IMG/VR virus record: IMGVR_UViG_3300035310_000070
Reading direction: 5' to 3' (one strand)
DNA length: 64,000 nucleotides
Source: a virus
Shown: one piece after another, positions 3,228 through 21,799 of the stretch
How positions within the stretch are numbered: the first letter of the stretch is position 1
Layout: every line of letters begins with the position of its first letter
Translations under genes and position numbers: made by a program
The notes under the pieces: model-generated
What the model was told of the DNA's origin: nothing
The model's database searches: none
Seen by the model: only the letters and a program-made list of their open reading frames with translations

Positions 3228-3230
3228 CGA

Positions 3231-3464: not shown

Positions 3465-3521
3465 CCCGACCCCTTATTTGATACGCAGCCCGGGACTTGC
3501 TATTGCGGGTTTAAGGGGAGG

Positions 3522-3785: not shown

Positions 3786-3936
3786 TTTGATTCCTCCGTT
3801 TTACGTTTGGATTTAGTGTGTAATGCTTGAAAGTTTGCGTTTTGCGTAATCCTGGAACTCCGCCCATGTTAAAGAAGTCTTGACCGGCTGCCCCAGCAGC
3901 CGCTGGGTATCGGCCCACGAGATGGGCCCACCCAGC

Positions 3937-5614: not shown

Positions 5615-6970
5615 TCAGCTCCTGGGTTGGCGGCCTGCCATTGCTAGTATCCTATCCTCAACGGCACGGGCCCCGGCGATCTGCTGGGCGGTCTCCATCG
5701 GATTATCAGATGCAGGTTGCATAGAGGACGGGGGCGCATTTGGGAGCGATAAAATAGGCATCTGACCTTTGCCGACCTGCTCCCGAATGCCCTTCAGCTC
5801 GTCCTTTATCCCGCTGCCGAGCTCTTGTAGCCGCGATCCCAACACAGGAAGGCCTGCAGAGATCAGGTCCTCAGTGGTCTTACCGGTCGGCTCAGTGTTA
5901 AGTTTTTGGCTGACCGTAATGAGCTCATTACGTAAAGCGTCGACCGTGCCTAGCAACTGGGCTTCCCGTTGACTCGCGATGGTTTCGCTCAGGGCCTGCA
6001 CTTTCTCGGCCAGTTGGTCCCTCTGTGAGGTTGCGGTATTAGCGCTCCCTCGCTGGAGCTCCTCACCCAATCCCTTTAACATGTCGCTGAACTCTTTGAA
6101 CGTGCTATCAACCTTGAGAGCAACGGCGTTGATCTGGGCTTGCAGTACAGCGTCCCGGTCCTTTTCCCGCTGTTCCTGCTGCTCCTTGACCCTTGCGGCC
6201 CGCTCGGCTTGGAGTTCCCCCAGTATACCATCACCCTGCTTCTGGAGGGTATCGACCTGTTTCTGGAGGGCAACCACGAGAGGGTTTTCCTCTAAACCAT
6301 GGGGATCCTGCACCCCCGGCCGTGAGTATCGAGGGTCATAGGCAAAAGGTTCAACCGGCCAGGGAGGTAGATAACCGGGTCGCGGGGGTGGCCAGAACTG
6401 GGGACCCCCGCGGAATGACCCTTGACCCCCATGGAAATAGGGTGGGTCTGAGGACTCTTGCGCGTTTGGGAACATTTCCTGGATCACCAAGGGAAGCAAG
6501 CCTCGGAGTTTAGGGGGAATATGGGTACTGATGAAGTTGGCGAGGTTATACTGATTCTCGCTGATCTGGCTGAAACTGCGGTAGCCCGTCACGATGGCCT
6601 GCCGGTTGAGAAGTGGGACCCCGATCCCGATGAGCAATTGGTCCAGGTGGGCGCCCTCGTCGTCTCCATCAAGAGCCGGAGCACTCACCCTGGCGCCTGG
6701 TTCAACAACGAAACTTCGAGGCGCTGCCGGTGTAGACGCTGCCGGTGTTGAATCGGTTGGGACGGTCCCGGGAGCAGGGTCCCTCGGAGGCTGCTCCCGG
6801 GGGGTCCGGCGTCCCTTAGGTGGGTCGGCTATTTTGGTACCCTCGGGGACCTGGTCGACCAAGAAAGTCTCCGACGCTGGCCTCGGTTCGTCTCGGTGCG
6901 CGTGCAGCCAGTGGCCCTGAAACTGGCGGGCCTCACGATATGCGATTTGGTGGACTGTGCAATAATACAT
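5615..6970 (-). CDS. Pro-rich coiled-coil protein with N-terminal C2H2-like finger
   Basis: YCTVH...HWLHAH; long heptad region. Confidence 0.8.
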   Translation of the reverse strand: MYYCTVHQIAYREARQFQGHWLHAHRDEPRPASETFLVDQVPEGTKIADPPKGRRTPREQPPRDPAPGTVPTDSTPAASTPAAPRSFVVEPGARVSAPALDGDDEGAHLDQLLIGIGVPLLNRQAIVTGYRSFSQISENQYNLANFISTHIPPKLRGLLPLVIQEMFPNAQESSDPPYFHGGQGSFRGGPQFWPPPRPGYLPPWPVEPFAYDPRYSRPGVQDPHGLEENPLVVALQKQVDTLQKQGDGILGELQAERAARVKEQQEQREKDRDAVLQAQINAVALKVDSTFKEFSDMLKGLGEELQRGSANTATSQRDQLAEKVQALSETIASQREAQLLGTVDALRNELITVSQKLNTEPTGKTTEDLISAGLPVLGSRLQELGSGIKDELKGIREQVGKGQMPILSLPNAPPSSMQPASDNPMETAQQIAGARAVEDRILAMAGRQPRS

Positions 6971-6972
6971 GC

Positions 6973-7164
6973 CTAACCTCTCCGGTTCTTAATCTCTTCG
7001 AGACAGGCGGTAATATCACGATTAAGCAAGGCCCAGATGTACGCTCCCAGGTCGACCGGCCCTGCAGGGTCGGTCTGACCGCTCCTGAGCCGCGCCACTT
7101 GTTCCACCATCTCTGCCTGGTCAGGGAGCAGTTGGATTGTTAAGGTTCTTCTCTCCATCACCAT
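6973..7164 (-). CDS. Ribbon-helix-helix-like small regulator
   Basis: TLTIQL beta strand followed by two helices. Confidence 0.55.
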   Translation of the reverse strand: MVMERRTLTIQLLPDQAEMVEQVARLRSGQTDPAGPVDLGAYIWALLNRDITACLEEIKNRRG

Positions 7165-7174
7165 GGCCAGCCCC

Positions 7175-7203
7175 TTGCGAAAGAGTCATTTCGATTATAG
7201 TAT
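7175..7203 (+). promoter_or_regulatory. Candidate promoter of the rightward lipid/structural operon
   Basis: TTGCGA-17 bp-TAGTAT in the divergent junction. Confidence 0.5.
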
Positions 7204-7216
7204 AAGAGACCAGGAA

Positions 7217-7453
7217 ATGGTAGAACCTTATATAACCGACGTAAAGGCATGGCTGGACCCTGAAGTTCCAGCGCAAGAGGGGGAACCCACTCCCCACGCC
7301 ATCGAGGGGGTCATCCCCAGGCTCTGCCGTGGCTGTGATGAGCCCCTGCCTCCGGATCGGAAAAGCTTCCACAACAAAGTTTGCCAGGGCGCCTGGCTGG
7401 GCAGAAACAGCGGGACGGCTAAGACGCTCAAAGCGAGTGGTAGCCCTCATTGA
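7217..7453 (+). CDS. Small Zn-finger protein
   Basis: AGGA RBS; CRGC...HNKVC. Confidence 0.55.
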   Translation: MVEPYITDVKAWLDPEVPAQEGEPTPHAIEGVIPRLCRGCDEPLPPDRKSFHNKVCQGAWLGRNSGTAKTLKASGSPH

Positions 7454-8235
7454 AGACAATTCTTTCAGCCTCGGTGAAGGGTGGTGTTGGGAAAACGACC
7501 GTTGCGGTCGGCCTTGCCCAAGCCCTCAACCGCAAGGGGTTCCGGGTCGGGGTCCTCGACCTGGACTACCGGGCCCCGTGTGTGCCAATCGTCTTGAACG
7601 CTGAGGATTTGGTTCTTGGCCGGACCGAAGAAGACGCGTTGGTCCCGGTCCAGGTGGACGGGCTTTACATGTTCAGCATGGCTTTTATATGGCCGGCCAG
7701 CAAATGTGTTCAAGTTGAGGATTCCGACGCCGCGGATGATGTCCGTCAGCTCTTGGCCCCTGGGGTGATCGCTTGGCCGAAACTGGACTTTCTGGTCTGT
7801 GACACGCCCCCCACGAGTTCGGGCATAGTACGGGTCGCCCTGGAGAGTTCCGAGGCCGCTGGCGCGGTGGTGATTTCCCACCCCAGTCGCGTAAGCCGGG
7901 CCGATACCCTCAGAACCTTGGACCTTTTCTCAGAGAAGCAGGTTCCGGTCTTCGGACTGGTCTCTAACCAAGGTGTTGACGAGCGCGGCGAAAATCGGTT
8001 TGACCTCCAGGACCAGGATATCCGGGACCTGGCCGCGCGGTACAACATCCCCTGGTGTTTTTGCATCCCGCACACCCGGCAGTTGGGACCTCATTTCGAT
8101 GAGCTCGCCGAGCTTATTTTGGCAACCAGCCCGGTCCTTCTGACAAAGACCAAAGAGCCTCAAGGAGCAGCATGGGACAAGATCATGACCTTGGCGAGGC
8201 AACTAACGAAGCCGCCATCGAGCTCAGCAAGATAG
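7450..8235 (+). CDS. Mrp/NBP35 (ApbC)-like P-loop ATPase lacking the CxxC motif
   Basis: KGGVGKTT, DLDYRAP, DFLVCDTPP, VPVFGLVSNQG. Confidence 0.85.
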   Translation: MKTILSASVKGGVGKTTVAVGLAQALNRKGFRVGVLDLDYRAPCVPIVLNAEDLVLGRTEEDALVPVQVDGLYMFSMAFIWPASKCVQVEDSDAADDVRQLLAPGVIAWPKLDFLVCDTPPTSSGIVRVALESSEAAGAVVISHPSRVSRADTLRTLDLFSEKQVPVFGLVSNQGVDERGENRFDLQDQDIRDLAARYNIPWCFCIPHTRQLGPHFDELAELILATSPVLLTKTKEPQGAAWDKIMTLARQLTKPPSSSAR

Positions 8236-8645
8236 AGCAGGTCCAGACCCTGCTGGAAGCCTTTAACATGCTTGAAGGGACCTTCGCCACCCTCGCCACG
8301 GTCGAGGAACTGAAGAGCGCGGAGGGGCGCCGTTGCATCTTGGCCATCACTGGGCTTAACCATCAGAAAGCGGCTTTCTTTTTCGAGGTGTCGGGTGCCC
8401 GGATCCGGCAGGTCCAGCCATTCGAGAATTACAACACCTATATCGCCGCCCCAATCGACTCGGTGATCCGGGTGTTGAAAGGCGTGCTCGATGGGGACGA
8501 AGATGCCTTCACCAATGAGTGGTCCCGAGGCCAGGCGAAGCTCGTGGGGGAGCATAGTATCCATGATGGTCTGCAATTCAATGAGGCCTTCCGGCGCCTG
8601 ACCCGCCTGATCAAAAGATATCGCGCCTTGACCACCAGGGCGTGA
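8172..8645 (+). CDS. SCP2 (sterol/lipid carrier)-like protein
   Basis: C-terminal pattern SVIRVLKG...AFTNEWSRGQAKLVGE resembles the SCP2 G-x-l-k-v-x-G end. Confidence 0.5.
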   Translation: MGQDHDLGEATNEAAIELSKIEQVQTLLEAFNMLEGTFATLATVEELKSAEGRRCILAITGLNHQKAAFFFEVSGARIRQVQPFENYNTYIAAPIDSVIRVLKGVLDGDEDAFTNEWSRGQAKLVGEHSIHDGLQFNEAFRRLTRLIKRYRALTTRA

Positions 8646-9268
8646 CCATGACTCCTCTAGGCTGGGCCTTCCTGTTTACGTCGCTACTCCTGAGCAGCTT
8701 TCTGGCCGCCAACTACCTCGTGGCCCGCGGCGTCCCTTTCCATATCGCCAGGAAAGTGGCACACCTGAGCGCCGGGGTCCCCATTGGACTCTCTCCCATC
8801 GTATTTCCATCGGTATGGTATCCCTGTGGGCTGGTCCTGACTTTCCTGGCCTTGTTGCTGCTGAGTCACCGGTTTGACATCTTGCCCGGGGTATCGAAAC
8901 CGGGGCGCTGGTCCGAGGTTGCCTTCCCCGCGGCGGTTTTGCTGTCTCTTGCCCTGTGGCCGATCTCTCCTTGGGCCGCCGCCCTGCCCGGTCTCTGGGT
9001 TGCCCTGGGCGACGGCGCCGCCGGCCTGGTGCGGGCTCGGGTCTACAAGAAGCCAAGCAAGGGTTTGTGGGGGACGGCAGCCTGTCTGGCGGTATGTCTT
9101 CCCTTTTCGGTTCTGGTGACGCCGTTCTGGCTTGGCCTTGCCGGCGCCGTGGCGTTTACGGCCGCTGAGGGCCTATTCGGAGACGTGGGCCGAATTCATC
9201 TTGACGATAACTTAGCCGCGCCAGTGGCGGCGGCGGCGGTCATGGGCGTCTCGTTGGCGGTGCTGTAA
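8642..9268 (+). CDS. Phytol/dolichol kinase-like membrane protein
   Basis: Multi-TM; RKVAH, GDGAAGLV, SKGLWG and DDNL motifs. Confidence 0.85.
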   Translation: MTMTPLGWAFLFTSLLLSSFLAANYLVARGVPFHIARKVAHLSAGVPIGLSPIVFPSVWYPCGLVLTFLALLLLSHRFDILPGVSKPGRWSEVAFPAAVLLSLALWPISPWAAALPGLWVALGDGAAGLVRARVYKKPSKGLWGTAACLAVCLPFSVLVTPFWLGLAGAVAFTAAEGLFGDVGRIHLDDNLAAPVAAAAVMGVSLAVL

Positions 9269-9284
9269 TGAAGGAGGTTAGTTC

Positions 9285-10364
9285 ATGACGACGACCATTG
9301 TTCCAGATGTCCGACTGAGCGTCCCCGCGACGAAGAAACCCGCTGCCTGGCTGGTCCACTTCTGGATTTTGCCCCGCTGGTTCGCCCTCCCAGCTGCTCT
9401 CTGCCCGGTACTCTTGGGGTACTTCGCTGTTCGAGGCGAACCGGGTCTTGCGCTGGCCCTGGCCTTGGTCGCGGCCTCCGCGCTTGTGGCGTCACTTCAC
9501 TGCTGGAACTCGGTGGTGGACTGGCTCTCCGGAGTGGACAAGCCCGGAGGGTCCGTAGAGAAACCTTATACTTCTGGGTCCCAGGTCCTGCCCCGGGGCT
9601 GGGCCCCGTTGTGGGCGGTTATCGCGAATGCCCTCGCCTTCTTTGGCCTGGCCGTTGGCCTTACCGTCTGGCTCGGCTTCCTGGTGAACTCCTGGTGGCC
9701 GGCCTTCGGTTTCGGCATCGCGTTCATCTTCGGCGCCTTCTATTCGCCAGTCTGGAAATATTGGTACATGCCCGAGGCCTGCGGCCTGCTCGCATTCGGC
9801 GTAGGCGGGACCGCGCTGGGCATGTCGGTCTCTGGCAACGTGCCGGTCAAAGAAGCGTTTTTGCTGGGAATCGGGGTCTCCCTGCCCTTCGCAGTTTCGT
9901 GGGGCGTGGACCAAGCCTATGACGCCGCTTCTGATGTCCAGCGCGGGGTCCGGAATATCGGCGGGCTGCTCCACGTCACGGGGTTTCCCACGTGGGCCTA
10001 CACCGGTATCGGTGTGCTGTTCACCTACGCTTACGTCGTGTTCCTGGTGGCCATCGGGTCCCTGGGCCCCTGGGCCGGGCTTACCTTCCTAGCGATGCCA
10101 GCCTGGATTCTCTGCCTGGCCTGGCTCTACGCTCACGACCGCGTAAGTTTACCCTCTTCCACGCGTTTCTTCTCGGTCCTCGATCGCCCACTGAATCCAG
10201 AGCAAATAGAGGCCCGTTTGTCCGAAGAGAATCTAGCTGTAGAACAACGATTGGCTGAATATCACAGCCGACTGAAGCGGACCCTCGACCTGGGTGTCAG
10301 GTTCGGCCTGCTGGCTATTCTGGTCCACATGGTGGCCCTGGTGGTCGCTGAAGCCCTAAGATGA
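9285..10364 (+). CDS. UbiA-family (MenA-like) prenyltransferase
   Basis: Multi-TM; NSVVDWLSGVD and DQAYDAASDVQRG Asp-rich motifs. Confidence 0.85.
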   Translation: MTTTIVPDVRLSVPATKKPAAWLVHFWILPRWFALPAALCPVLLGYFAVRGEPGLALALALVAASALVASLHCWNSVVDWLSGVDKPGGSVEKPYTSGSQVLPRGWAPLWAVIANALAFFGLAVGLTVWLGFLVNSWWPAFGFGIAFIFGAFYSPVWKYWYMPEACGLLAFGVGGTALGMSVSGNVPVKEAFLLGIGVSLPFAVSWGVDQAYDAASDVQRGVRNIGGLLHVTGFPTWAYTGIGVLFTYAYVVFLVAIGSLGPWAGLTFLAMPAWILCLAWLYAHDRVSLPSSTRFFSVLDRPLNPEQIEARLSEENLAVEQRLAEYHSRLKRTLDLGVRFGLLAILVHMVALVVAEALR

Positions 10365-10597
10365 GCACTGCGAAAGAGGAACTTCCGGGGATGGAATTTG
10401 AAGGTCCCATGGGCCATTTCTGGGTCATGGAAGAGGTGCCTATGCCGGCCCTAATAGCCGCAATCGCTGAGTGCTTGGACGAGCTGATAAAACGCGGGTT
10501 CTCAGAGTCCCAAATCATGGAAATGGTTCACAGCCTTCAGGTAGATAGAATCGAGGAAATGATTCACCGCCTTCAGCAGGGAGAACGGAATGTCTGA
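10361..10597 (+). CDS. Hypothetical protein
   Basis: Coupled ORF inside the cluster. Confidence 0.65.
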   Translation: MSTAKEELPGMEFEGPMGHFWVMEEVPMPALIAAIAECLDELIKRGFSESQIMEMVHSLQVDRIEEMIHRLQQGERNV

Positions 10598-11627
10598 GTT
10601 AAAACCACGCATTACCAGCCTGGGTCACGCTGTGGCCGATAATGTGGTGATGTCCATAGAAGAGGCCGTCGAGTATTTTGGATATACCTCTGGAGTCGTG
10701 AAAGGCATCGCCCGTAATACTAAGGTGGCCGGGAAGCATTGGTGGTGCGACCCCCGGACCAGGTACAGCGTCCAACAGATGACAGAAGACTATGAGGCTG
10801 GGGCGCTGGCCCTGAGCTGCAAGGCTATAGACAACTGCTTGCAGGGCTACCCAGTTGAAAAGATCGGCACGTTCATCTACGCTTCTTGTACTAAGCAGCT
10901 AGACCTGACTCCAGGTATGGCCTTCAAAATCGCCGGCGCTCTCCGGATGCGCCCCGACGTCCGCATGGACGAGCCGACCGGATTAGGTTGCCAAGGAGCC
11001 CTTCCAAGCCTGGAGACTGCCTACGCCCACTTAGTGACCTTTGGGGAGCCAGTTTTGCTGATTGCCTGCGAAATTTGCTCCGCGACATTCTTTGATGCCC
11101 CGCAGGAAGATATTGGGAACACAATATCCAACCTCATTTTTTCAGACGGTGCTTCAGCTGCGTTGCTTGACTTTTCTGACAATCCGGGACTTCCTGCGAT
11201 AATTGGCTTTGACCGGTATTTTTCCAAGGACGGGGAACGCTTACTCGGCTATGACATTAAGGACGGACGCAAGAAAGTCCGGCTCTCCAAGGATGTCCGT
11301 ACTCAGGTCCCGCCGATGGTCGCCCAGACTGTTCAGAGGTTGCTAAAACGCCACAGCCTGACCACTGAAGATATCTCCAGCTGGTGCGTGCACAACGGCG
11401 GCGCAGCCATTCTCGACGAAATAGCCAATGACCTCGGGCTGAACAGCCAGTACGATTTCCGCTATTCTTGGGAGACCTTAAGGGAGTATGGCAATCTCTC
11501 CAGCGCGACAGTCGGGGTCGTGGCGGAGAAGATGCACGCGGACCCGATCAACCGCCACGGGTGGGTTGTAGGGGCCGCGATGGGAGCTGGGGCAGGGGTG
11601 GGAGCGGTGCTCTGCCGTTACGGCTAG
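10590..11627 (+). CDS. Type III polyketide synthase (chalcone/stilbene synthase fold)
   Basis: Triad GLGCQG, VHNGG, YGNLSS; FSDGASA. Confidence 0.93.
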   Translation: MSELKPRITSLGHAVADNVVMSIEEAVEYFGYTSGVVKGIARNTKVAGKHWWCDPRTRYSVQQMTEDYEAGALALSCKAIDNCLQGYPVEKIGTFIYASCTKQLDLTPGMAFKIAGALRMRPDVRMDEPTGLGCQGALPSLETAYAHLVTFGEPVLLIACEICSATFFDAPQEDIGNTISNLIFSDGASAALLDFSDNPGLPAIIGFDRYFSKDGERLLGYDIKDGRKKVRLSKDVRTQVPPMVAQTVQRLLKRHSLTTEDISSWCVHNGGAAILDEIANDLGLNSQYDFRYSWETLREYGNLSSATVGVVAEKMHADPINRHGWVVGAAMGAGAGVGAVLCRYG

Positions 11628-11645
11628 TTTAAGGAGGAGCACGAG

Positions 11646-12002
11646 ATGCACGTTTTAGAACCGATTCACACAACGCAAGCTGGTTGGAATCGTCTATATC
11701 TTAAGCACCGTGATGAGACCAGCCTGCTGCTGGCGATAGTAGATTACAAGAAGAGGAGTGATATAAGGTGGGACCTTTTGCAGATGGACCCGATAGTGAT
11801 TCCTAAATTTCCAGAGGTCAAAAGCGAAGAGCTTCGCGAGCTCTGGATCACCTACTTGCGAAGTCACGTTAATGGGAAACTGCCCGACTTCTTACGTTGG
11901 GGTTCCTTTGACGTTTATGGGAAGATACCTGTACTGAAAGAGAACGGGGACTCATTTGCAAAACAGGTAAGGGCGATTTTAGAGAGCATACCTGTCAGCT
12001 GA
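11646..12002 (+). CDS. Hypothetical protein
   Basis: AAGGAGG RBS; AT-richer ORF. Confidence 0.7.
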   Translation: MHVLEPIHTTQAGWNRLYLKHRDETSLLLAIVDYKKRSDIRWDLLQMDPIVIPKFPEVKSEELRELWITYLRSHVNGKLPDFLRWGSFDVYGKIPVLKENGDSFAKQVRAILESIPVS

Positions 12003-12012
12003 TGAGGGCAAC

Positions 12013-12504
12013 ATGGTTAGAGGCTATCTAGGGAACGAACCGCCTTGGCAGCGTAAGCCTTTACCTCCAATTCCAGGAGTGCTGAGCGCCATCTCCTGGG
12101 TCACTGGAGAAGAAATTCCTTTGGCCGCCTTCAAGCCAGTCTTTGGTATGGTTTTTCCCCAGGGTGCGCTGCTCTACCATGGCACTAGCCCAAATGCTGC
12201 GCAGGCTATTCTCAAGGAAGGTTTCCACACGCCTAGTGGTGGTCCGGTCTGGTTCAGCTCTTCTTTTAGCGAAGCCCTTCAGTACGGGAAGCGGCGCTTG
12301 GGGGAGTTCCGTGAAGACCCCCGCACTGTCGCAGTTATTGAAGCCTTCGTTACTCCTAAGGAAGCCAGCGGATGTACAATCTCATTCGCCTATCCTCATA
12401 TCCGTGTTCATTGCCCGGTAGGAGGACGAATCATCCCCCATGAGATGAGGGCCTTTGTTCAGATCGGGGAGGCCAAGGGTTATGAAATTCTTGAGCGCGG
12501 ATAA
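12013..12504 (+). CDS. ADP-ribosyltransferase-fold protein
   Basis: LYHGTS...ILKEGF...VWFSSS...ALQYG (H-G-T ART motif). Confidence 0.7.
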   Translation: MVRGYLGNEPPWQRKPLPPIPGVLSAISWVTGEEIPLAAFKPVFGMVFPQGALLYHGTSPNAAQAILKEGFHTPSGGPVWFSSSFSEALQYGKRRLGEFREDPRTVAVIEAFVTPKEASGCTISFAYPHIRVHCPVGGRIIPHEMRAFVQIGEAKGYEILERG

Positions 12505-12535
12505 GCGTTGCTGTTATTAAGTAAGGAGCGGAAAC

Positions 12536-12730
12536 ATGAGTGCCTTGCGGGACGAAGGAAAGCCCGATTCCAACGTGGTGATGGAGCCAGGACAGAATAT
12601 GGTTGAAGTAACGACTGGGAAACTTCTGTTGTCTTGTGGTTGTGGAATTCGAGTCGTTAACGGGTTCCGCCCATTAAAAGCTTGGTGCTCTCGACATCCC
12701 GGCTCTTGGCCATACGTCCAGACACTTTAG
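12536..12730 (+). CDS. Small Cys/His protein
   Basis: AAGGAG RBS; SCGCG...CSRH. Confidence 0.55.
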   Translation: MSALRDEGKPDSNVVMEPGQNMVEVTTGKLLLSCGCGIRVVNGFRPLKAWCSRHPGSWPYVQTL

Positions 12731-12782
12731 TGCATTGCTGGTCGACATAGGCGCAGTCTTACATCACGTGACTAGGAGGCAT

Positions 12783-13037
12783 ATGTCTGAAGCTGAGCTC
12801 TTGAAGGTCATCGCGGACTACTTACAGGAGAAGCAAGGCACTGAATCCGGCCAAGTCAAGATGGAGACGTCCATCGTCGACGACCTAAAACTGGACTCCT
12901 TAGACACGATCGAGATGATACTGGCCATGGAGGAACATTTCAAAACCCAGATCCCAGATGAAGTGGCCGGGGAATGGCAGACCGTGGGCGACATCGTGAA
13001 GTTTCTCACCGCCAGCCCGGTAACTCCCCTGCCATGA
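12783..13037 (+). CDS. acpP: Acyl carrier protein
   Basis: DLKLDSLDTIEMILAMEEHF phosphopantetheine motif; AGGAGG RBS. Confidence 0.95.
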   Translation: MSEAELLKVIADYLQEKQGTESGQVKMETSIVDDLKLDSLDTIEMILAMEEHFKTQIPDEVAGEWQTVGDIVKFLTASPVTPLP

Positions 13038-14032
13038 AGCTCTTGCTGACTGGCGCCAGCGGCGTCCTCGGCAGTCATCTAACCCGGGAGCTTCTCCAAG
13101 ACGGCCACCAAGTCTACGCTCTGGTGCACCGGAAGGCCTTGGGTGAAGGCCCAGTGGTGTGCATCCAAGGAGATGTAACGTTACCTCGATTCGGGATTCA
13201 GGGGGAATTCCCGAAGCTGGATGCCATCGTCAACGCCGCGGGCTTGGTGTCTTTCAACAACCGTGAGCGTCCGGCGTTGCAACGGGTGAATGTCGACGGA
13301 GCATGGAATGCGGCGAATACGGCCAGCTGCCTAGGCATCCCCCTACTCCACATCTCCACCGCATACGTCTGTGGCGACCACAAGGGCATCTTCGAAGCAA
13401 CCGACCTTGAGCTGGGGCAACACCACCGCAATGAGTACGAGCGAAGCAAGTATCAGGCTGAGCAGGAAATCCGAGAGTGGAAGAAGCATCACTTATCCTG
13501 GACCATTTTCCGGCCCTCCATTCTGGTTGGAGACTCCAAGGTATCAGGCATCCCGCCTTTGCACGGCCTCTACTTGGGAGTCAGAGGAGTTTACCTGACG
13601 AAGCGCTGGCTGGAGCGCAAGTTTGCGCTGCCTGCTCTCGACCCGGAGTTGCGGTTAAGAGCCGACCCGCACGCTACCATCAATATTATTCCGGTGGACA
13701 TCGCGGCACGCCAGATAGCGGACTTGGTCCTTAAATCGGAGCCCGGCACGTATCCGATAGTCAACACGCAACCCCCAACCATCGCTCAGATCTGCGCGGG
13801 CGCCGGTGCTGCTTTGGGGGCCAAAATCATCCCCTGTTTATCATTTGAACCTAACCCAGGAGAACGGATGCTGGAGCGATTGGTGCGAGACCTGCTCCCC
13901 TACTTACAGGGTGAGCCGGTTTTTGCGGCGAACCCTTCCTGCCCGTCTCCAGCGGCTCAAGTAATCCCACCGGGCTTCGTTGAACAGACTGCGCGACTAT
14001 TCTTGTTAAATCATTCTGGACAGAAGAGGTAA
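13034..14032 (+). CDS. Fatty acyl-CoA/thioester reductase-like extended SDR
   Basis: TGASGVLG, HISTAYVCG, YERSK, RPSILVG. Confidence 0.88.
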   Translation: MKLLLTGASGVLGSHLTRELLQDGHQVYALVHRKALGEGPVVCIQGDVTLPRFGIQGEFPKLDAIVNAAGLVSFNNRERPALQRVNVDGAWNAANTASCLGIPLLHISTAYVCGDHKGIFEATDLELGQHHRNEYERSKYQAEQEIREWKKHHLSWTIFRPSILVGDSKVSGIPPLHGLYLGVRGVYLTKRWLERKFALPALDPELRLRADPHATINIIPVDIAARQIADLVLKSEPGTYPIVNTQPPTIAQICAGAGAALGAKIIPCLSFEPNPGERMLERLVRDLLPYLQGEPVFAANPSCPSPAAQVIPPGFVEQTARLFLLNHSGQKR

Positions 14033-14036
14033 CCGC

Positions 14037-14324
14037 TTGCTCGACCGATTCAAAGCCTTAGTGGACCGCATGCCATCCGACAAGACTCTTCAGGACCTGG
14101 TCAGAATGGCTCCTGTTCTGGAAAAGCTGCCCAGTGAAGCAACCCTTCAGGCCCTCATTCAATACCTGCCCCTCCTGGCAAAGTTGCCGGATTCGGCGGC
14201 ACTAAACCGGTTATCAGAGTACCTGCCCCTCTTGGAACGCTTGCCGGACCAAGCGACGCTTAAACAACTGCTGGATAAACTAGACACCCTGTCCCCCTTT
14301 CTTGCGGCATTGAAGGGAAAATAA
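14037..14324 (+). CDS. Amphipathic 19-aa repeat protein
   Basis: Four LPxxxxLxxLxxxLPxLxx repeats. Confidence 0.75.
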   Translation: MLDRFKALVDRMPSDKTLQDLVRMAPVLEKLPSEATLQALIQYLPLLAKLPDSAALNRLSEYLPLLERLPDQATLKQLLDKLDTLSPFLAALKGK

Positions 14325-14336
14325 TATACTGGCCAC

Positions 14337-14810
14337 ATGCCGCGCCCGACCTTCAGGCCGCCCATGCCGCCTCGAGTACCCGATAAGCTGCCCTTTGAGG
14401 AGAGCGTGGACCGGGCGCTGGACCGGGCCGCCGCAGCTTTAGAAGGAAGCAGATTCCTCCGCGTTGTACGCCGCATCGAGGACAAGCTGCCGGTCATTGG
14501 GCCCACCGAGATCCCGACCCCGCTGGGCACGGTGCGCGCTCCCCAGTTGGAGCCCCCGAGTTTAGAACCGCCACAGATGGACGACCGCCGCAAGCAGGCG
14601 GTCAAGGCCGCCGTGGCCCAGGACCTGGCGTTCATCGTGGGGTTCGTGCCGGTGGTAGGCGATGCCGTGGCGGACGTCGTTGAAGATGCCTACTTCCGCA
14701 CCATCCACGAGACTCTCACTCCGGAAGAGTTTGAGACCTATAAGAAGTTCGACGTGTACAGCCCTTCGACGGTGGCGGCCCTCAGGACTTTTTCCAAGCA
14801 CCGGAGATAA
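14337..14810 (+). CDS. Putative membrane-associated virion protein
   Basis: Pro-rich; hydrophobic segment LAFIVGFVPVVG. Confidence 0.7.
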   Translation: MPRPTFRPPMPPRVPDKLPFEESVDRALDRAAAALEGSRFLRVVRRIEDKLPVIGPTEIPTPLGTVRAPQLEPPSLEPPQMDDRRKQAVKAAVAQDLAFIVGFVPVVGDAVADVVEDAYFRTIHETLTPEEFETYKKFDVYSPSTVAALRTFSKHRR

Positions 14811-14812
14811 CG

Positions 14813-15253
14813 ATGCAGCGACCGTTGTTGCCAGACGCCCTAGCATTAACTTTCAATTCCATTATACTTGCCTTCGCTGAGGCGACAGGGATTGCTCCTG
14901 GTGCCGGAGAAGAGTGGGTCCAGGGGCTAGAAGACCATGTGAGGCGCAATGGCCTGTTTTCCAAGTTCTCCGTTTTGTACGCACCAATTCAACCTCCAAG
15001 CTTCTTCTGGCGATATTCGTGCGACAATTGTCGGGCATGGCAAGAACCGAACGGATGCAAGTGGGTCGAAGGGTGGATAGCGGCCGGGGGCTGGTGCGGG
15101 ATTTTTATGCCAAAAGAAGGGGATCCCCCATTCACCTGGCCGGCCAAGTTTCTCCAGGATATCCCGCGGTGGCTGGCCGAAGCGCCCGAGGCTTTCCGGA
15201 ATTGGCTTGACGAAGAACAGCCGCCTAAGGAACTCTGGATGCTTGGAGGGTAA
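14813..15253 (+). CDS. Protein with HiPIP-like four-Cys domain
   Basis: CDNC...C KWVEGWIAAGGWC matches the HiPIP CxxC...CxxVxGxIxxxGWC pattern. Confidence 0.6.
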   Translation: MQRPLLPDALALTFNSIILAFAEATGIAPGAGEEWVQGLEDHVRRNGLFSKFSVLYAPIQPPSFFWRYSCDNCRAWQEPNGCKWVEGWIAAGGWCGIFMPKEGDPPFTWPAKFLQDIPRWLAEAPEAFRNWLDEEQPPKELWMLGG

Positions 15254-16514: not shown

Positions 16515-16525
16515 GGAGGAGCACC

Positions 16526-16783: not shown

Positions 16784-16789
16784 GTCGCA

Positions 16790-17902: not shown

Positions 17903-17935
17903 CGTTGGAGCCCTCAGCAATTCGAGCAAGTTAAG

Positions 17936-18430
17936 GTGGCAATGCTGGAACTGTTAGGAGCATGGAGTCTCTTTTGCTGGAGGTTTTCTATTAATGAACG
18001 CCAAGAAAACTTTCGACTCGCCCGAGGAGCATCCGACAGTTCGGGAAAGCCTCTCCTTGTGGTGGGAAAACCACAAGAATGGGACTTTTCGATAGTGGGG
18101 CATCCTTGTGGCGATGTTACGCTCGACATTGACCCAAGAGTGCTTGAGCAGTGCCGTACGTCAGGCATTGTTGGCGACGTGACTGCGATACCGTTCCCAG
18201 ATAAGTATTTCGGGGCAGTCTATGTGAGTCACGTTCTCGAACATCTAGACTCCCAGGTGGCTTTCAACCAAGCTATGGCTGAAATTCACCGAGTCGCTGA
18301 TGCTGTATTTGTTTGCTGGCCTCGTTGGTGGAGCCCGGGTGCCTGGTTACACCCAGACCATAAATTGCTGCTGGGTGATAACAACGGAACTGTCACATTC
18401 ATTTCTCAAATCCGTGCATCAACCACTTGA
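17936..18430 (+). CDS. SAM-dependent methyltransferase
   Basis: DIDP...GDVTAIPFPDKYFGAVYVSHVLEHL. Confidence 0.85.
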   Translation: MAMLELLGAWSLFCWRFSINERQENFRLARGASDSSGKPLLVVGKPQEWDFSIVGHPCGDVTLDIDPRVLEQCRTSGIVGDVTAIPFPDKYFGAVYVSHVLEHLDSQVAFNQAMAEIHRVADAVFVCWPRWWSPGAWLHPDHKLLLGDNNGTVTFISQIRASTT

Positions 18431-18497: not shown

Positions 18498-18890
18498 ATG
18501 GCCCACGAAGGCACACCCCATCGAGTCTTGGACAACATTCTCGACGGCGCAGCGAACGGCGCCAAGGGCCTGGTGTCAGGTCTTTCTGGCGCCCTTACGT
18601 CCGCCGGTGAAGGCATTCAAACAGGACTCGATGCGCCATGGAAGTCCATCGGCGGGCCGGACCAGCCGCTCAGGATCGTCGACCGCTTACTCGATGGAGC
18701 CGTTCACGCCGGTGTCAACGCGGTCAACCAGGGCCTCATCGAGACGGTGAAACAGGGTGGAGACGCAATACAGAACGCCTTGGACCATCCTGTAGAAAAC
18801 TTCGGCATTCCTCCCTCTATGGGAGAGGGCATGCGAAACCCTTCTCTTATGGGCAAGGGTTTCGGCCGCATTAGGCTGCCGAGGCTTTAG
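18498..18890 (+). CDS. Gly/Ala-rich amphipathic two-repeat protein
   Basis: PHRVLDNILDG...GLDAP and PLRIVDRLLDG...ALDHP. Confidence 0.75.
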   Translation: MAHEGTPHRVLDNILDGAANGAKGLVSGLSGALTSAGEGIQTGLDAPWKSIGGPDQPLRIVDRLLDGAVHAGVNAVNQGLIETVKQGGDAIQNALDHPVENFGIPPSMGEGMRNPSLMGKGFGRIRLPRL

Positions 18891-18902
18891 GGCTGAACGA
18901 AA

Positions 18903-19250
18903 ATGGCGGTAACTCAGTTGCCGAACGGAGGGCAGGGTAACATGACCACACGAGCGTTTCCGCAGCTACCGGATATTAAGGCGCTTTTGACCGGGCCGGC
19001 TCAGGCCCTGGCCAATATCGAAAGAGGTTTCCCCATAGGCCCCCCTCCGGTCTCGATCGGTCAGACGTTAAGCCAGATAGCAACCAGCCTCCCGGTCCCC
19101 GGTGCGCTTGGGGCACCTGCGGTGCCCGACCTCTTGCCACCGGCGATTCGCTCAACCCTTCAAGCCGCACTGACGCCTCAGGCGCCGCGGCCTTCTGGGA
19201 ACGGGCGGATCCAACCCGCTGTCGCTTACGCCCGCACCGGAATCAGTTAA
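18903..19250 (+). CDS. Pro-rich putative virion protein
   Basis: Operon ORF. Confidence 0.65.
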   Translation: MAVTQLPNGGQGNMTTRAFPQLPDIKALLTGPAQALANIERGFPIGPPPVSIGQTLSQIATSLPVPGALGAPAVPDLLPPAIRSTLQAALTPQAPRPSGNGRIQPAVAYARTGIS

Positions 19251-19288
19251 CAACCGGACCCAAGGCAAGACCCACAGGAGGGAGATAA

Positions 19289-20062
19289 ATGGTACTCGCA
19301 CAGGTTGCGGCTGAGTCTCGCGTCGAGAGTGTGCTAGGCGCCTACGTTAGGGGACAGCTACCCGGACAGCCTTATACGAGGGACAGCGTCTCCATCGGGG
19401 GCAAGCCTATCAGCGCCTTAGACCCCGACCCAAACGACTTCGAGATATTCCGTGCAGAGCTGGCGGTGTTGAGCAAACGCCAGCGCAATCCAATGGTGGC
19501 GGATATCATCGCCCGTAACGCCCCCCGGCTATGGGATGCGGTGCGGATGGTCAACTCCAACACCAAGCTGGGCTTTGGCGGAGCCAGCGCCCGTGGCGGC
19601 CGGCTACTCTTCAATCCCTTGGAGCCGCGAGACCTGGGACGCGCCGGCGGCTTCCCGGGCACTGCCCCTCCAGATAGCTGGCTCCAGGTCCCCGCCACGG
19701 TCGGGGCAGCCCGGTTGTGGCCCCCCACTTCCGGCACCATCGACATGACGATCAGCTCGTTGCCGGTCCTGAGCCACGTGTACTTTGGCTTCGTGAACCC
19801 GGTGGCGAACCCCAAGGTGAATAATATTCAGTTGGTCCTGGACGCCGACCCGTGGCCTGAGGAGATCCTGGACTGGGATTGGCGGGAAGGGTATGGGGAC
19901 AACGAGACGCCGGTCTACGAGCTAAAGAACCCCTGGGTGATCCGGCCCGGCGCTTCGTACCGAATCAGCGTGCGCAACTACATCACCGGCGAGGACCGGC
20001 TAACGCCTATCGGCTTCAGCGTGAAGAGAGCCCTGGACATCATCGCATCCCTGGCAACATAA
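19289..20062 (+). CDS. Candidate major capsid protein (jelly-roll-like)
   Basis: Strong RBS, C-biased codons, beta-rich C-half (VYELKNPWVIRPGASYRISVRN); fold assignment is inference. Confidence 0.5.
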   Translation: MVLAQVAAESRVESVLGAYVRGQLPGQPYTRDSVSIGGKPISALDPDPNDFEIFRAELAVLSKRQRNPMVADIIARNAPRLWDAVRMVNSNTKLGFGGASARGGRLLFNPLEPRDLGRAGGFPGTAPPDSWLQVPATVGAARLWPPTSGTIDMTISSLPVLSHVYFGFVNPVANPKVNNIQLVLDADPWPEEILDWDWREGYGDNETPVYELKNPWVIRPGASYRISVRNYITGEDRLTPIGFSVKRALDIIASLAT

Positions 20063-20074
20063 GGGGGTTGGACG

Positions 20075-20347
20075 ATGAATACACGGATGCGCTCGGTGCG
20101 GGGCCCGGCCGTTTACGCGGCCGGTGGTTTCCTTGTCACCCTAGGAGATATTGAGCGGATCTCAGTTTCGTCGGGCCGGTTGGTTTCAGCGGCAACTGTT
20201 TCGTCATCGCCCATGGTGGCCCAGGTTGTAAACGCTTCAGGCAACGTTGCCACCGTGATCCTGCGGGACCAGCGGTCTGGCGGGCTTGAACCTACTGCCG
20301 GCGACTTCAGCGGCCTACACGTGAACGTGCTCTACGAGGGCGTGTAA
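20075..20347 (+). CDS. Capsid decoration/cement-like small protein
   Basis: GPAVYAAGG...EPTAGDFSG...VLYEG resembles small proteins found after capsid genes. Confidence 0.5.
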   Translation: MNTRMRSVRGPAVYAAGGFLVTLGDIERISVSSGRLVSAATVSSSPMVAQVVNASGNVATVILRDQRSGGLEPTAGDFSGLHVNVLYEGV

Positions 20348-20394
20348 CAAACAACCACGACCCGTACCCGTAAACATTACATAAGGGGAAGGGC

Positions 20395-21006
20395 ATGGCA
20401 GTCGAACTCCTGACGGAGACGCCGCGTCTCCTGCAAGATGGTCACTACGTCGTCTTTGAAGGCGGTTGGCCAACCTCAACCGGCAAAGATAATAAATGGT
20501 TCCGGGTCGAGCGAGCCCAGCAGATCAAGCTGGACATCCCACGCATCGTCTCCAGCGGCGGCAGCATCGACCTGGACTTCTCGGCCCCCTCGGGCGGCGG
20601 GATCGGTGACCTAAACCTTTCCCTTATCCCCACCGGCGGCGACACTCTCTACGAGCTCCTTATCGGCATGAAGGGCAACGTCTTCATGTACCCGATGTAC
20701 AACAACTCCTTCTTCCAGAAGCTCGAGGTGACGAACGTCGCCCCCGACACCGGAGACCGCAACCTCCGGTACCTCGGCTTCTTCGATGAGAACGACTCTC
20801 CGTTTGAAGCGCCAAGGCTTCGGGAGCATGTTGTTAAAGACCAGCAGCCCCCGGTCCTTCGCCTGTACAACGACCAGGTCGTTGATGAGCCCCTGGTAAT
20901 TCGCTTCATCGTCAACCGGTGCAGGCTGGTCCCAGCCAGTGCGCCCTCGGAGGACCTCCGCCGGGTAGCCCGCATCGCTAAATACCATTCCTGGTTCGTG
21001 TACTAA
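20395..21006 (+). CDS. Second candidate capsid (beta-rich) protein
   Basis: SPFEAPRL...PVLRLYN...LVIRFIVN; high-expression codon style. Confidence 0.45.
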   Translation: MAVELLTETPRLLQDGHYVVFEGGWPTSTGKDNKWFRVERAQQIKLDIPRIVSSGGSIDLDFSAPSGGGIGDLNLSLIPTGGDTLYELLIGMKGNVFMYPMYNNSFFQKLEVTNVAPDTGDRNLRYLGFFDENDSPFEAPRLREHVVKDQQPPVLRLYNDQVVDEPLVIRFIVNRCRLVPASAPSEDLRRVARIAKYHSWFVY

Positions 21007-21017
21007 ACAGGAAGAAT

Positions 21018-21365
21018 ATGCCAGTAACGCGAGAAGACTATAAACAGCGGGCCAGGCGGCTGGTCTGCGCCTCTGGGGATACCCGATTTTTCCTCGTTCC
21101 CAGAAACCAGGTCGCACATGCAAGCCATATCCAGGTCGACACCTCAGACCTCAGCGGCGTAGCGGGGATAGTCAGCGTCCAAATCCGCGACAGCTTCTCC
21201 CCGATATCCGGCAGCAGCGGAACGGTCATCCGAAAAGAGCTTGCCGTCCGCGGCGGAGATGTGATCGCCGAAGACCTTGGGGCCGGCTACCAGCTCATCG
21301 GGGGGATCGATGTGCGCGTCGACACCTCCGGGCCCATAGTTTCTCTCAGCGCCGTTTTCCAGTAG
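21018..21365 (+). CDS. Small beta-sandwich virion protein
   Basis: Val/Ser/Gly-rich beta pattern. Confidence 0.55.
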   Translation: MPVTREDYKQRARRLVCASGDTRFFLVPRNQVAHASHIQVDTSDLSGVAGIVSVQIRDSFSPISGSSGTVIRKELAVRGGDVIAEDLGAGYQLIGGIDVRVDTSGPIVSLSAVFQ

Positions 21366-21370
21366 GCCCC

Positions 21371-21799
21371 GTGCAGCAACGCATAGTACATCCTATCGAT
21401 GACTTCGAGTTGAGGCCGGACCGGGTTCAGCTATCCGTCTTCACCGCGGCCGCGGCAATCACCGAGGGCGACGCTGTCTTCGTGAACTCCTCAGGGCGTG
21501 TAGACCGGGCCCGGGCCGATGCCTCTTCGACGATGCACGCCGTTGGGGTGGCCTATGAGGCCATCGCGAACGCTGGCCGCGGACGGGTCGTAACCCACGG
21601 ACCGATGCGGAGCGATAACTACGACGGGTCCGGCAGATTGGGCCTGCTGGCCTGGGTTAGCCCAACTAGCGCTGGTGGCGTGACCGGGGTCCCGCCTAGC
21701 AGCTCGGGACAGATCCGGCAGCAGGTTGGAGTCTGGCGGGAGCGGCGCCTGCTCTACGTAAGCCTGGGAGGCGCGAGCCAAGTCGGCGGCGTCCTCTAG
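21371..21799 (+). CDS. DUF2190/capsid-cement-like protein
   Basis: AAAAITEGDAVFV...A...AVGVA...GRVVTHG. Confidence 0.65.
   Translation: MQQRIVHPIDDFELRPDRVQLSVFTAAAAITEGDAVFVNSSGRVDRARADASSTMHAVGVAYEAIANAGRGRVVTHGPMRSDNYDGSGRLGLLAWVSPTSAGGVTGVPPSSSGQIRQQVGVWRERRLLYVSLGGASQVGGVL

Follow-up and report, generated by a model that had tools for sequence, protein, structure and literature searches.

One tightly packed transcription unit at 7163-15253 of the window (the 64 kb that we examined out of a 68.6 kb contig) encodes a type III polyketide synthase (PKS) together with a UbiA-superfamily prenyltransferase, and we slightly favour the view that its products build a prenylated phenolic or quinol-like membrane lipid via a type III PKS and UbiA pathway. 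The six enzyme types that the initial annotation had placed in one operon, namely an SCP2-like carrier, a prenol kinase, a UbiA/MenA-like prenyltransferase, a type III PKS, an acyl carrier protein (ACP) and an acyl reductase, were all found on the plus strand between 8172 and 14032 (Table 1), the SCP2-like assignment with moderate support. The interval had been drawn from 7450; the plus-strand operon is real, but its first gene within that interval encodes an Mrp/ParA-type ATPase, which lies outside the six listed functions. Genes of the operon overlap or stand 4-31 nt apart. Prenylated-aromatic-lipid enzymology, as originally proposed, is the best explanation of a gene set comprising PKS, UbiA, a prenol-kinase-like protein, ACP and reductase.

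Table 1. Features of the module and its surroundings; positions refer to the window.
Feature	Position	Strand	Basis
63-aa conserved small protein, divergent at operon head, possible regulator	6973..7164	-	57-75% identity, same position in relatives L002, L003, L005
96-aa Cys-containing small protein, first gene of plus-strand operon	7163..7453	+	homologues (39-48% identity) immediately precede the ATPase gene in L002, L003, L005
Mrp/NUBPL/ParA-type P-loop ATPase	7450..8235	+	PF10609, E 2.4e-36
SCP2-like putative lipid-binding protein	8172..8645	+	UbiT SCP2 model, E 0.09
Polytopic membrane protein, phytol/prenol-kinase fold (CTP-dependent kinase/cytidylyltransferase superfamily)	8642..9268	+	AlphaFold model
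UbiA-superfamily membrane prenyltransferase, nearest MenA/UBIAD1	9285..10364	+	PF01040, E 3e-8
78-aa protein between UbiA and PKS genes	10361..10597	+	overlaps both neighbours; 53% identical homologue at same place in L006
Type III PKS, Pks11/Pks18-like	10590..11627	+	Chal_sti_synt_C 47.6 bits, Chal_sti_synt_N 32 bits (cut-off 27)
Strain-specific three-gene insertion (118, 163, 64 aa)	11646..12730	+	absent between PKS and ACP in L001-L011
ACP, 84 aa from Met17 of the 12735 ORF	12783..13037	+	DSL motif, Ser conserved
NAD(P)H-dependent thioester/fatty-acyl reductase (extended SDR)	13034..14032	+	PF07993 NAD_binding_4, 103 bits
Three small proteins (95, 157, 146 aa), co-inherited with the module in every case	14037..15253	+	conserved position
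SAM-dependent methyltransferase	17936..18430	+	Methyltransf_11, E 3.9e-9
Block with the highest conservation in the element (130, 115, 257, 90, 203, 115, 142 aa)	18498..21799	+	identity to L017

The PKS has the intact C-H-N triad that had been reported for it: C134, H268 and N302 do not vary among 16 sequences and align to the catalytic residues of M. tuberculosis Pks11, which is also the nearest solved structure (E 3.6e-24). Phylogeny, which the initial annotation had named as a check on viral versus cellular ancestry, places the PKSs of the element in a single clade on a long stem (SH-aLRT 100), apart from the cellular enzymes, to which the PKS has no more than about 37% identity. The ACP is encoded by an ORF at 12735-13037, whose start is likely at 12783, and is 36-55% identical to relatives bearing PF00550 (PP-binding). 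The start of the reductase gene overlaps the ACP stop codon. Matches of the reductase to PRK07201 (E 9e-31) and to a thioester-reductase domain (E 7e-20) are accompanied by an invariant TGxxGxxG motif and invariant S108/T109-Y135-K139 residues. Known type III PKS pathways do not account for the role of this reductase.

Turning to the membrane enzymes, the UbiA protein scores 33.7 bits against PF01040, that is 0.5 bit under the curated cut-off of 34.2. Its nearest NCBIfam model is MenA (E 1e-6), far from any equivalog, and a profile of its clade matches only UBIAD1 (8djk, E 9e-5) in the PDB. The Asp-rich motifs N75/D79/G83/D85 and D209/Q210/D213 are invariant in nine relatives. The kinase-like protein has no match in Pfam, and its AlphaFold model is best matched by the phytol kinase of Synechocystis (TM 0.79, 22% identity over the full length). 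As for the SCP2-like protein, which is 40-75% identical in relatives, PF02036 was detected in one of four homologues (E 0.0068), and the atlas feature score to SCP2-bearing clusters is 0.91. These latter two proteins were assigned from similarity in fold or in language-model features, or from weak HMM matches.

CdsA and CarS are also among the structural matches of the kinase-like protein, and in archaeal lipid synthesis UbiA-family and CarS enzymes catalyse consecutive steps. Accordingly, the module might be an ether-lipid pathway, in which the reductase, whose family includes fatty acyl reductases, would form a fatty alcohol or aldehyde from acyl-ACP, UbiA would form the ether like archaeal DGGGP synthase, and the kinase-like protein would be a CarS/CdsA-type cytidylyltransferase activating the product. 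However, this is very improbable: phytol kinases rank clearly above CdsA and CarS (TM 0.38 or less), neither a G1P/G3P dehydrogenase nor GGGP synthase was seen, the UbiA profile has no match to solved DGGGPS or archaeal UbiA structures, and the invariant type III PKS would be left unexplained. A different role for UbiA is suggested by a large, 12-kb glycosylation cluster at 22.5-34.4 kb on the same strand as the lipid operon, and by marine contigs of 61-66 kb on which genes for more distant UbiA relatives adjoin sugar-modification genes, with no PKS nearby. There is precedent in the UbiA superfamily, which includes Rv3806c with polyprenyl phosphate as acceptor. That is, UbiA and the kinase might make a polyprenyl-phosphate-linked sugar carrier for the downstream cluster, the kinase supplying polyprenyl phosphate and UbiA acting like decaprenyl-phosphate phosphoribosyltransferase, and PKS, ACP and reductase would form a separate lipid branch. 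We regard this as improbable, as the only family-level signals of UbiA are MenA and UBIAD1, i.e. aromatic prenyltransferases, as, within the groundwater clade, the UbiA and PKS genes stay side by side and are inherited together even where identities fall to 29% and 41%, respectively, and as the ACP-coupled reductase is of the thioester-reductase type and not DprE2-like.

The prenylated-lipid module is kept as a unit. The order ATPase, SCP2-like, kinase-like, UbiA, PKS, ACP and reductase, followed by the 95-, 157- and 146-aa genes, recurs in at least ten independent metagenome contigs with PKS identities of 41-93%, and every enzyme is under purifying selection (dN/dS 0.08-0.20; PKS 0.08, UbiA 0.10, ATPase 0.13, SCP2-like 0.15, reductase 0.17-0.20), the element's most conserved protein having a value of 0.11. 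The ATPase is 53-78% identical in L002, L003 and L021 and is module-first every time; it has a KGGVGKT Walker A motif, lacks the CxxC Fe-S motif, and its matches to the MrpORP and ApbC models (E 1e-27) fall well short of the equivalog cut-offs. Homologues of the 95-, 157- and 146-aa proteins directly follow the reductase in L001, L007, L008, L011 and L017, and those in the distant L021 are 31-39% identical. The 95-aa protein contains four 19-residue amphipathic repeats and the 157-aa protein has one hydrophobic segment. No family match was obtained for these three proteins, for the 63- and 78-aa proteins or, in Pfam and NCBIfam, for the 96-aa protein, whose true start is probably slightly downstream of 7163. 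The junctions on both flanks of the module recur in independent assemblies, ruling out the host-virus chimera for which the initial annotation had allowed; a chimeric contig is also at odds with the PKS tree, since the element PKSs form one clade apart from the cellular enzymes. Thus, the module is a core, syntenic and vertically inherited part of the element and not a variable moron.

This conservation also bears on the use of the product. The use that the initial annotation had put forward for the lipid, in an envelope or in remodelling of the host membrane, is speculative. Many alkylresorcinols and prenylated hydroquinones made by type III PKS clusters have bioactivity (PMC7587189, among others), and the Streptomyces phage/plasmid ZL12 has a type III PKS as cargo, so that the product could be a diffusible phenolic lipid, e.g. 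an antimicrobial or signal in host competition or superinfection exclusion, instead of a structural or respiratory membrane lipid. We consider this unlikely, because a core module whose PKSs form one clade and whose flanks are the same in all cases argues against it, and because an SCP2-like carrier and a kinase for prenol salvage are indicative of bulk synthesis of a lipid that resides in the membrane.

Two parts of the region are accessory. The genes at 11646-12730 lie outside the conserved pathway: their GC3 is 0.51-0.53 compared to 0.65-0.74 in their neighbours, and a contig from run X1 joins 12013 directly to 12789. The 163-aa protein of this insertion is weakly similar to PARP/KptA ADP-ribosyltransferases (PARP E 0.0016, KptA E 1e-4). 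The methyltransferase that had been noted at 17936 is present, but it is accessory as well, as no homologue occurs in the examined part of L017 and a strain-variant contig in run X1 skips 17893-18437. In L010, a 45% identical homologue stands directly upstream of the PKS gene, and the protein is possibly a tailoring enzyme.

The analysis establishes which genes are present, their catalytic residues, their conservation and synteny, and the purifying selection on them; substrates, order of steps, product and use are inferred, and we propose the following scheme. A long acyl chain on the element's own ACP, or on CoA, would prime the Pks11/18-like PKS, which would add malonyl units and cyclise the chain to an alkylresorcinol- or alkylpyrone-type aromatic head. 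In the membrane, the MenA/UBIAD1-like UbiA would join a polyprenyl chain to this head; the phytol-kinase-like protein may replenish the donor pool by CTP-dependent re-phosphorylation of free prenol, and the SCP2-like protein may hold greasy intermediates, as UbiJ and UbiT do in ubiquinone synthesis. The reductase, translationally coupled to ACP, would convert an ACP thioester to an aldehyde or alcohol, either releasing the product or supplying a second lipid building block, and the methyltransferase may tailor the product in some strains. A prenylated lipid of the alkylresorcinol, pyrone or quinol type is the most likely product. Neither a hydroxylase/monooxygenase, needed for a true quinone, nor an acyl-ACP loading enzyme or PPTase was recognised, nor was a second kinase, though UbiA donors are diphosphates.

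UbiJ and UbiT are SCP2 carriers, and the phytol kinase VTE5 feeds the UbiA-family prenyltransferases of tocopherol and phylloquinone synthesis. With its MenA/UBIAD1-like prenyltransferase, SCP2-like accessory protein and fold of a CTP-dependent prenol kinase, the module resembles the late steps of menaquinone/ubiquinone synthesis and phytol salvage and follows prenylquinone logic. However, the aromatic head would be polyketide-derived and not come from chorismate, the element proteins reach no equivalog model, and a VTE6-type second kinase is lacking. Type III PKS alkylresorcinols are known to give rise to respiratory polyketide quinones, and the pkqABC/srsABC operons of Mycobacterium smegmatis and Streptomyces likewise employ a Pks11/Pks10-like, long-acyl-primed PKS, whose phenolic lipid is tailored to a membrane electron carrier (PMC5916927, PMC9927152). 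Prenyltransferase, ACP, reductase and kinase are all absent from these operons, which do include a methyltransferase and an oxidoreductase, and the products bear an alkyl rather than a prenyl tail. In Micromonospora, the genes for UbiA, a methyltransferase and a type III PKS lie side by side (PMC7587189), and the agq cluster of Actinoplanes missouriensis yields alkyl-O-dihydrogeranyl-methoxyhydroquinones (Awakawa et al. 2011, cited in PMC7587189). Both share with the element a type III PKS for an alkylresorcinol-type head, a UbiA-family membrane prenyltransferase and a methyltransferase. By comparison, the element has no recognised monooxygenase, its methyltransferase is accessory, its PKS is distant from cellular enzymes (see above), and it adds ACP and thioester reductase as well as phytol-kinase-like, SCP2-like and Mrp-like ATPase proteins, all on a virus-like mobile element and not on an actinomycete chromosome. 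Among 50,697 phage records, the only annotated type III PKS match is that of ZL12 (GQ919031), which is 26% identical over 61% of the query and a lone cargo without UbiA, kinase or ACP-reductase partners; a weak match came from one further record, an unannotated 4.8-kb fragment of a faecal phage.

The initial annotation had regarded the element as a virus whose operon runs straight into virion genes. Neither statement could be upheld: the viral nature of the element is unproven, with genes for a terminase, a portal, a packaging ATPase and a capsid of the HK97 or double-jelly-roll type all undetected in 64 of 68.6 kb, and the genes downstream of the operon have no virion-family match besides the 142-aa protein, which reaches Phage_cement_2 with a borderline 24 bits, equal to the cut-off. 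The products of 18498..21799 are candidate particle proteins. Identity to L017 is 74-86% for the five genes of this block at 19289-21799, and 60% and 49% for its first two genes. The conserved 257-aa protein combines helices with an 8-strand jelly roll, and its best structural match in the atlas is a virus-labelled cluster (TM 0.68/0.73). Instead of a virus, the carrier could be an element of plasmid-like or integrative type that belongs to an uncultivated bacterium, with the operon as ordinary secondary-metabolite or membrane-lipid cargo, to which we give a substantial chance, if not an even one. The missing hallmark genes speak for it, as do the genes for an integrase, ParA-like and ParB-like proteins and a DDE transposase, and no relative of the 257-aa protein, UbiA or PKS was found in IMG/VR. 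However, PLSDB also lacks a relative, conjugation genes were not seen, contig sizes are discrete (57.8, 68.6 and 73.6 kb), and the eight groundwater relatives without exception originate from the 0.1 um filter fraction. In addition to the cement and jelly-roll matches, the genes for replication are typical of phages, comprising a D5-type helicase-primase, RecT, DUF5131, numerous HNH endonucleases and a beta clamp that is nearest to virus-labelled clamps. This alternative is about the carrier and not about the chemistry.

Taken together, the gene set for a prenylated phenolic lipid is absent from every sequenced phage or plasmid searched, and the earlier statement that no characterised virus has it is consistent with our searches of phage and IMG/VR records. 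Close relatives of the element were found neither in IMG/VR, the phage records and PLSDB nor in GTDB species genomes; the contigs that share the gene order stem from three Hainich groundwater wells, one JGI sample and one Logan run. These ~58-74 kb virus-like DNAs of groundwater and lake water represent a previously undescribed family of mobile elements, of which 7163-15253 is the conserved core module.

In the analysed 64,000 nt of the metagenome contig, which measures 68,570 nt in full, almost all genes from ~7163 to 44772 lie on the plus strand and overlap or are separated by few bases. Within this stretch, the initial annotation had proposed an operon for a prenylated-polyketide lipid with six functions, namely an SCP2-like carrier, a prenol kinase, a UbiA/MenA-like prenyltransferase, a type III polyketide synthase (PKS), an acyl carrier protein (ACP) and an acyl reductase. 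All six were recovered, the SCP2-like carrier and the kinase as putative assignments, but the gene at 7450 adds a seventh function that had not been listed: it encodes an Mrp/ParA-type ATPase rather than the SCP2 carrier. The ATPase scored far under the equivalog cut-offs of the MrpORP and ApbC models. Scans for promoters and terminators gave results at chance level.

Genes of the lipid operon and other features of the window
Feature	Position	Strand	Basis or remark
451-aa protein	5615-6970	-	
Mrp/NUBPL/ParA-type P-loop ATPase	7450-8235	+	PF10609, E 2.4e-36
SCP2-like protein, 157 aa	8172-8645	+	weak UbiT and PF02036 signals, atlas match
Polytopic membrane protein (kinase-like), 208 aa	8642-9268	+	fold match
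UbiA-family prenyltransferase	9285-10364	+	PF01040, Asp-rich motifs
78-aa protein without assigned function	10361-10597	+	
Type III PKS	10590-11627	+	both CHS-like Pfam domains
Three small genes	11646-12730	+	strain-specific insertion
163-aa protein	12013-12504		
ACP	12783-13037	+	Ser of DSL motif
Thioester reductase, NAD_binding_4 type	13034-14032	+	PF07993
Three co-inherited small proteins (95, 157 and 146 aa)	14037-15253	+	
95-aa repeat protein	14037-14324		four ~19-residue amphipathic repeats (LP..ATL..L..)
Adjacent 143-, 85- and 222-aa proteins	16083-17458		
Methyltransferase	17936-18430		
Most conserved block	19289-21799		
GC hairpin	20105-20124		8 pairs (7 GC), T-rich tail
S8 subtilase in two ORFs	38052-39365		
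DDE transposase	48376-49734	+	DDE_Tnp_1

Judged by its sequence, the PKS is a type III enzyme of the chalcone synthase superfamily, for which iterative condensation of malonyl-CoA to a pyrone or resorcinol is predicted. It matched PF02797 with 47.6 bits and PF00195 with 32.0 bits (gathering cut-off 27 for both), and its catalytic triad (C134, H268 and N302), invariant in 16 members of the clade, aligned with GLGC, HPGG and GNLSSA of Pks11 from M. tuberculosis. The latter is also the nearest solved structure (E 3.6e-24), followed by a brown-alga PKS, THN synthase, 2-pyrone synthase and Pks18. For the UbiA protein, the PF01040 score of the window copy was 0.5 bit short of the gathering cut-off (33.7 versus 34.2 bits), and precomputed Pfam annotation lists this domain for all eight relatives. 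The residues of both Asp-rich motifs, i.e. N75, D79, G83 and D85 of NxxxDxxxGxD and D209, Q210 and D213 of DxxxD, are invariant, and the protein is polytopic with at least five hydrophobic segments. At the family level, signals came only from MenA (NCBIfam) and from UBIAD1 (E 9e-5, clade profile). With 28 bits against an equivalog cut-off of 277, the protein does not qualify as a MenA orthologue; MenA is its nearest model.

For the kinase-like protein, an AlphaFold model (pLDDT 76.5) was compared with other structures; neither PF01148 nor related Pfam models matched any of four homologues, even at E 10. The model aligned over its full length with the Synechocystis phytol kinase P74653 (TM 0.79/0.71, 22% identity), followed by seven plant VTE5 entries and then by farnesol kinase, CTP-dependent DAG kinase and CdsA. 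Matches to solved chains include CdsA and CarS, and a language-model search returned 'Phytol kinase' at 0.95. The modelled structure thus points to a phytol/prenol-kinase fold of the CTP_transf_1 clan and hence to a putative CTP-dependent prenol kinase, cytidylyltransferase activity also being possible. Profile searches of the PDB yielded no meaningful match for this protein or for the SCP2-like protein. The latter weakly resembled UbiT (E 0.09), one homologue out of four gave E 0.0068 with PF02036, and the atlas search scored 0.91. In the ACP, the serine of the DSL motif is conserved in four true homologues, and the PF00550 annotation is that of relatives. The reductase exceeded the PF07993 cut-off clearly (103 versus 20.1 bits) and has an invariant TGxxGxxG motif and S/T-Y-K triad, whereas its score against TIGR01746 was under the cut-off (71.5 versus 213 bits).

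Among the objections that the initial annotation had named to its own proposal were a host-virus chimera and inactive enzymes. Both the chimera and decayed enzymes are excluded by recurrent synteny, by the single PKS clade and by the substitution rates. The gene order ATPase, SCP2-like, kinase-like, UbiA, PKS, ACP and reductase, followed by the 95-, 157- and 146-aa genes, recurs in contigs from the Hainich groundwater wells H14, H41 and H51, from one JGI sample and from one Logan run, and relatives also carry a divergently oriented 63-aa gene upstream of the module. In the distant relative L021 (PKS 41%, UbiA 29% identity) the set is retained with a few additional genes interspersed. Close relatives of the PKS number ~17 at 50-93% identity and are all metagenomic, cellular enzymes following at ~30%; a tree built from 117 sequences placed all 18 PKSs of the elements in one group with SH-aLRT 100 and a long stem. 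The dN/dS ratios, which are approximate since synonymous sites are close to saturation, were 0.08-0.20 across all enzymes as compared to 0.11 in the most conserved protein of the element. No fewer than seven genes assigned to a single lipid hold their order across elements with PKS identities down to 41%. Because this order is kept and the constraint equals that on the most conserved protein, the predicted lipid is central to the life cycle of the element and not incidental cargo.

Not all genes in and around the operon belong to this core. No relative has the genes at 11646-12730, whose GC3 is lower, and a strain in sequencing run X1, which contains strain-variant contigs, lacks most of them, position 12013 being joined to 12789. 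The 163-aa protein encoded here weakly resembles ADP-ribosyltransferases of the PARP (E 0.0016) and KptA RNA 2'-phosphotransferase (E 1e-4) types and is missing from a variant in the same run. The methyltransferase, which had been noted as following the operon, is indeed present, but we regard it as optional, with a probable tailoring role, and not as a core member, because no homologue was found in the examined part of the 73.6 kb relative, an X1 contig omits the gene (17893 joined to 18437), and the homologue in the related contig L010 lies immediately upstream of the PKS gene. The 95-aa repeat protein always directly follows the reductase, including in L021, and could have a lipid-binding or scaffold role. 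Upstream, the gene of the 451-aa protein points away from the operon. The protein, a candidate for a key element function, has no Pfam or PHROG match; relatives of it lie upstream of the lipid operon in the related contig L002 and in L021 (24% identity in the latter). Further downstream, the adjacent 143- and 85-aa proteins share a near-identical C-terminal peptide (..LSVLGSPS/TVS), and the C-terminal end of the 222-aa protein that comes next consists of tandem copies of PIQGLPRLGAYGE. These peptides may be shared docking or repeat motifs.

How might the module work? Following the chemical logic of actinomycete, polyketide-quinone and prenylquinone systems, we propose that the PKS would accept an acyl starter bound to CoA or to the ACP of the element and form an aromatic head, which the UbiA enzyme would prenylate. 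The kinase-like protein would salvage prenols, the SCP2-like protein would hold intermediates, and the ACP-coupled reductase would convert a thioester to the aldehyde or alcohol. No hydroxylase, which would be needed for a true quinone, and no ACP-loading enzyme, PPTase or second kinase was recognised for this pathway. In prenylquinone pathways, MenA/UBIAD1 enzymes, SCP2 helpers (UbiJ/UbiT) and phytol kinases work together. The actinomycete agq cluster reportedly combines a type III PKS, a UbiA protein and a methyltransferase in one neighbourhood. Clusters of the agq type, which make alkyl-prenyl-hydroquinones, comprise a PKS, a UbiA enzyme, a methyltransferase and a monooxygenase, whereas the module described here has no recognised monooxygenase and its methyltransferase is accessory; it is therefore not a cluster of this type. 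In Micromonospora, genes for a type III PKS, a UbiA protein and a methyltransferase neighbour each other (PMC7587189), and in polyketide-quinone operons Pks10/11-type enzymes generate alkylresorcinols that give rise to membrane electron carriers (PMC5916927, PMC9927152). Rival readings see in the same enzymes a pathway to ether lipids or the source of a bioactive compound that diffuses.

Beyond the prenylated phenolic lipid proposed here, the wider gene content of the window bears on the nature of the carrier. The window encodes a tyrosine integrase, a CHC2 zinc-finger (DnaG-type) protein, a D5-type helicase-primase, RecT, DUF5131, a DNA methylase, an AAA ATPase, HNH endonucleases, a ParB-like protein and an IS-type DDE transposase. 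A further protein weakly resembles the pol III beta clamp in its central domain, with a score under the Pfam cut-off, and is nearest to virus-labelled clamps. A glycan-synthesis cluster is present as well, and a polyprenyl-phosphate sugar carrier serving it is another rival product of the operon. Searches of nearly all ORFs >100 aa with Pfam and PHROGs, covering 64 of 68.6 kb, revealed no large terminase, portal or HK97-fold capsid, and the element is accordingly not assigned to the tailed phages (Caudoviricetes). A motif scan of the ORFs from 539 to 44772 detected no classic Walker A ATPase apart from the helicase. The most conserved block is 74-86% identical to the 73.6 kb relative and encodes a 142-aa protein matching Phage_cement_2 exactly at the cut-off, as well as a 257-aa jelly-roll-type protein, a candidate particle protein without detectable paralogy to the 203-aa protein. 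A strong GC hairpin lies 43 nt past the stop of the 257-aa gene, within the next ORF.

Relatives of the 257-aa protein occur on contigs of 57.8, 68.6 and 73.6 kb, and distant UbiA relatives on marine contigs of 61-66 kb, with one cluster including a Tara 0.1-0.22 um sequence. All groundwater relatives derive from 0.1 um filter fractions, and a lake-water run holds many strain variants over the entire 7-22 kb stretch. In our reading, the carrier is a discrete, size-constrained, phage-like mobile element, and we lean towards considering it a virus.

Several further features were observed in the window and its relatives. The S8 subtilase is split by one in-frame TGA into two ORFs corresponding to positions 1-120 and 139-274 of the Peptidase_S8 profile. 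TGA recoding, which this split suggested, was set aside since the remaining ORFs read through under table 11. In L021, some 2 kb separate the reductase of the lipid module from an S8 peptidase gene downstream of it. The DDE transposase carries an N-terminal SWIM zinc finger and lies within the minus-strand replication arm. In the 73.6 kb relative, a TnpB/Cas12f-like gene (OrfB_IS605) is inserted in the small-protein block, and a glycosyltransferase and a 567-aa protein both contain LAGLIDADG-domain inteins (sites at 2712-3827, 12505-14208 and 20518 onward of that contig). In the 65.9 kb marine contig L019, a UbiA relative with 29% identity adjoins aminotransferase, radical-SAM and glycosyltransferase sugar genes as well as numerous tiny ORFs; Csx3 and ThiF genes lie in the vicinity, and there is no PKS gene nearby. 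In the wider element group, UbiA may therefore predate the PKS.

Single metabolic genes are known from phages. In the 50,697 phage records searched, the sole annotated type III PKS match was a cargo gene of the Streptomyces phage/plasmid ZL12 (26% identity); a fragmentary faecal phage record gave a weak PKS match, and no UbiA homologue was found. Likewise, no match resulted from megablast of the 7-20 kb region against phages, and no relative from scans of IMG/VR with the PKS, the UbiA protein and profiles of the 257-aa and UbiA proteins, or from searches of PLSDB with the UbiA and 257-aa proteins. GTDB species genomes yielded only cellular PKSs at ~30% identity and no element relative. Literature searches found neither a virus-encoded UbiA or type III PKS pathway nor any conserved phage pathway of several enzymes for lipids or polyketides, and in the large Hainich virome paper polyketide biosynthesis appears only as a heat-map category. 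These negatives are consistent with the earlier statement that no characterised virus with this gene set is known. The enzyme families are known, and their combination and carrier are new. If the element is a virus, it would be the first case of a conserved multi-enzyme lipid/polyketide pathway in phages.

The finding offers a way to a prenylated phenolic lipid that is probably new. It is also an entry point to an uncharted element family of 58-74 kb, which the searched phage, plasmid, viral-contig and species-genome collections do not contain. Moreover, it can serve to test whether bacterial viruses that lack hallmarks provide their own membrane chemistry. Tentatively, and as a less probable outcome, the family might represent a lineage of bacterial viruses that lack the common hallmarks of capsid and packaging and may bud or be enveloped, with the genes of the polyketide-prenyl lipid pathway inherited vertically as a core module. 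Such viruses would make a prenylated phenolic or quinol lipid of their own, which would either build or modify the particle membrane or equip infected cells with a new electron carrier in the membrane. If true, it would be the first lineage of prokaryotic viruses with a polyketide-based lipid pathway at its core.
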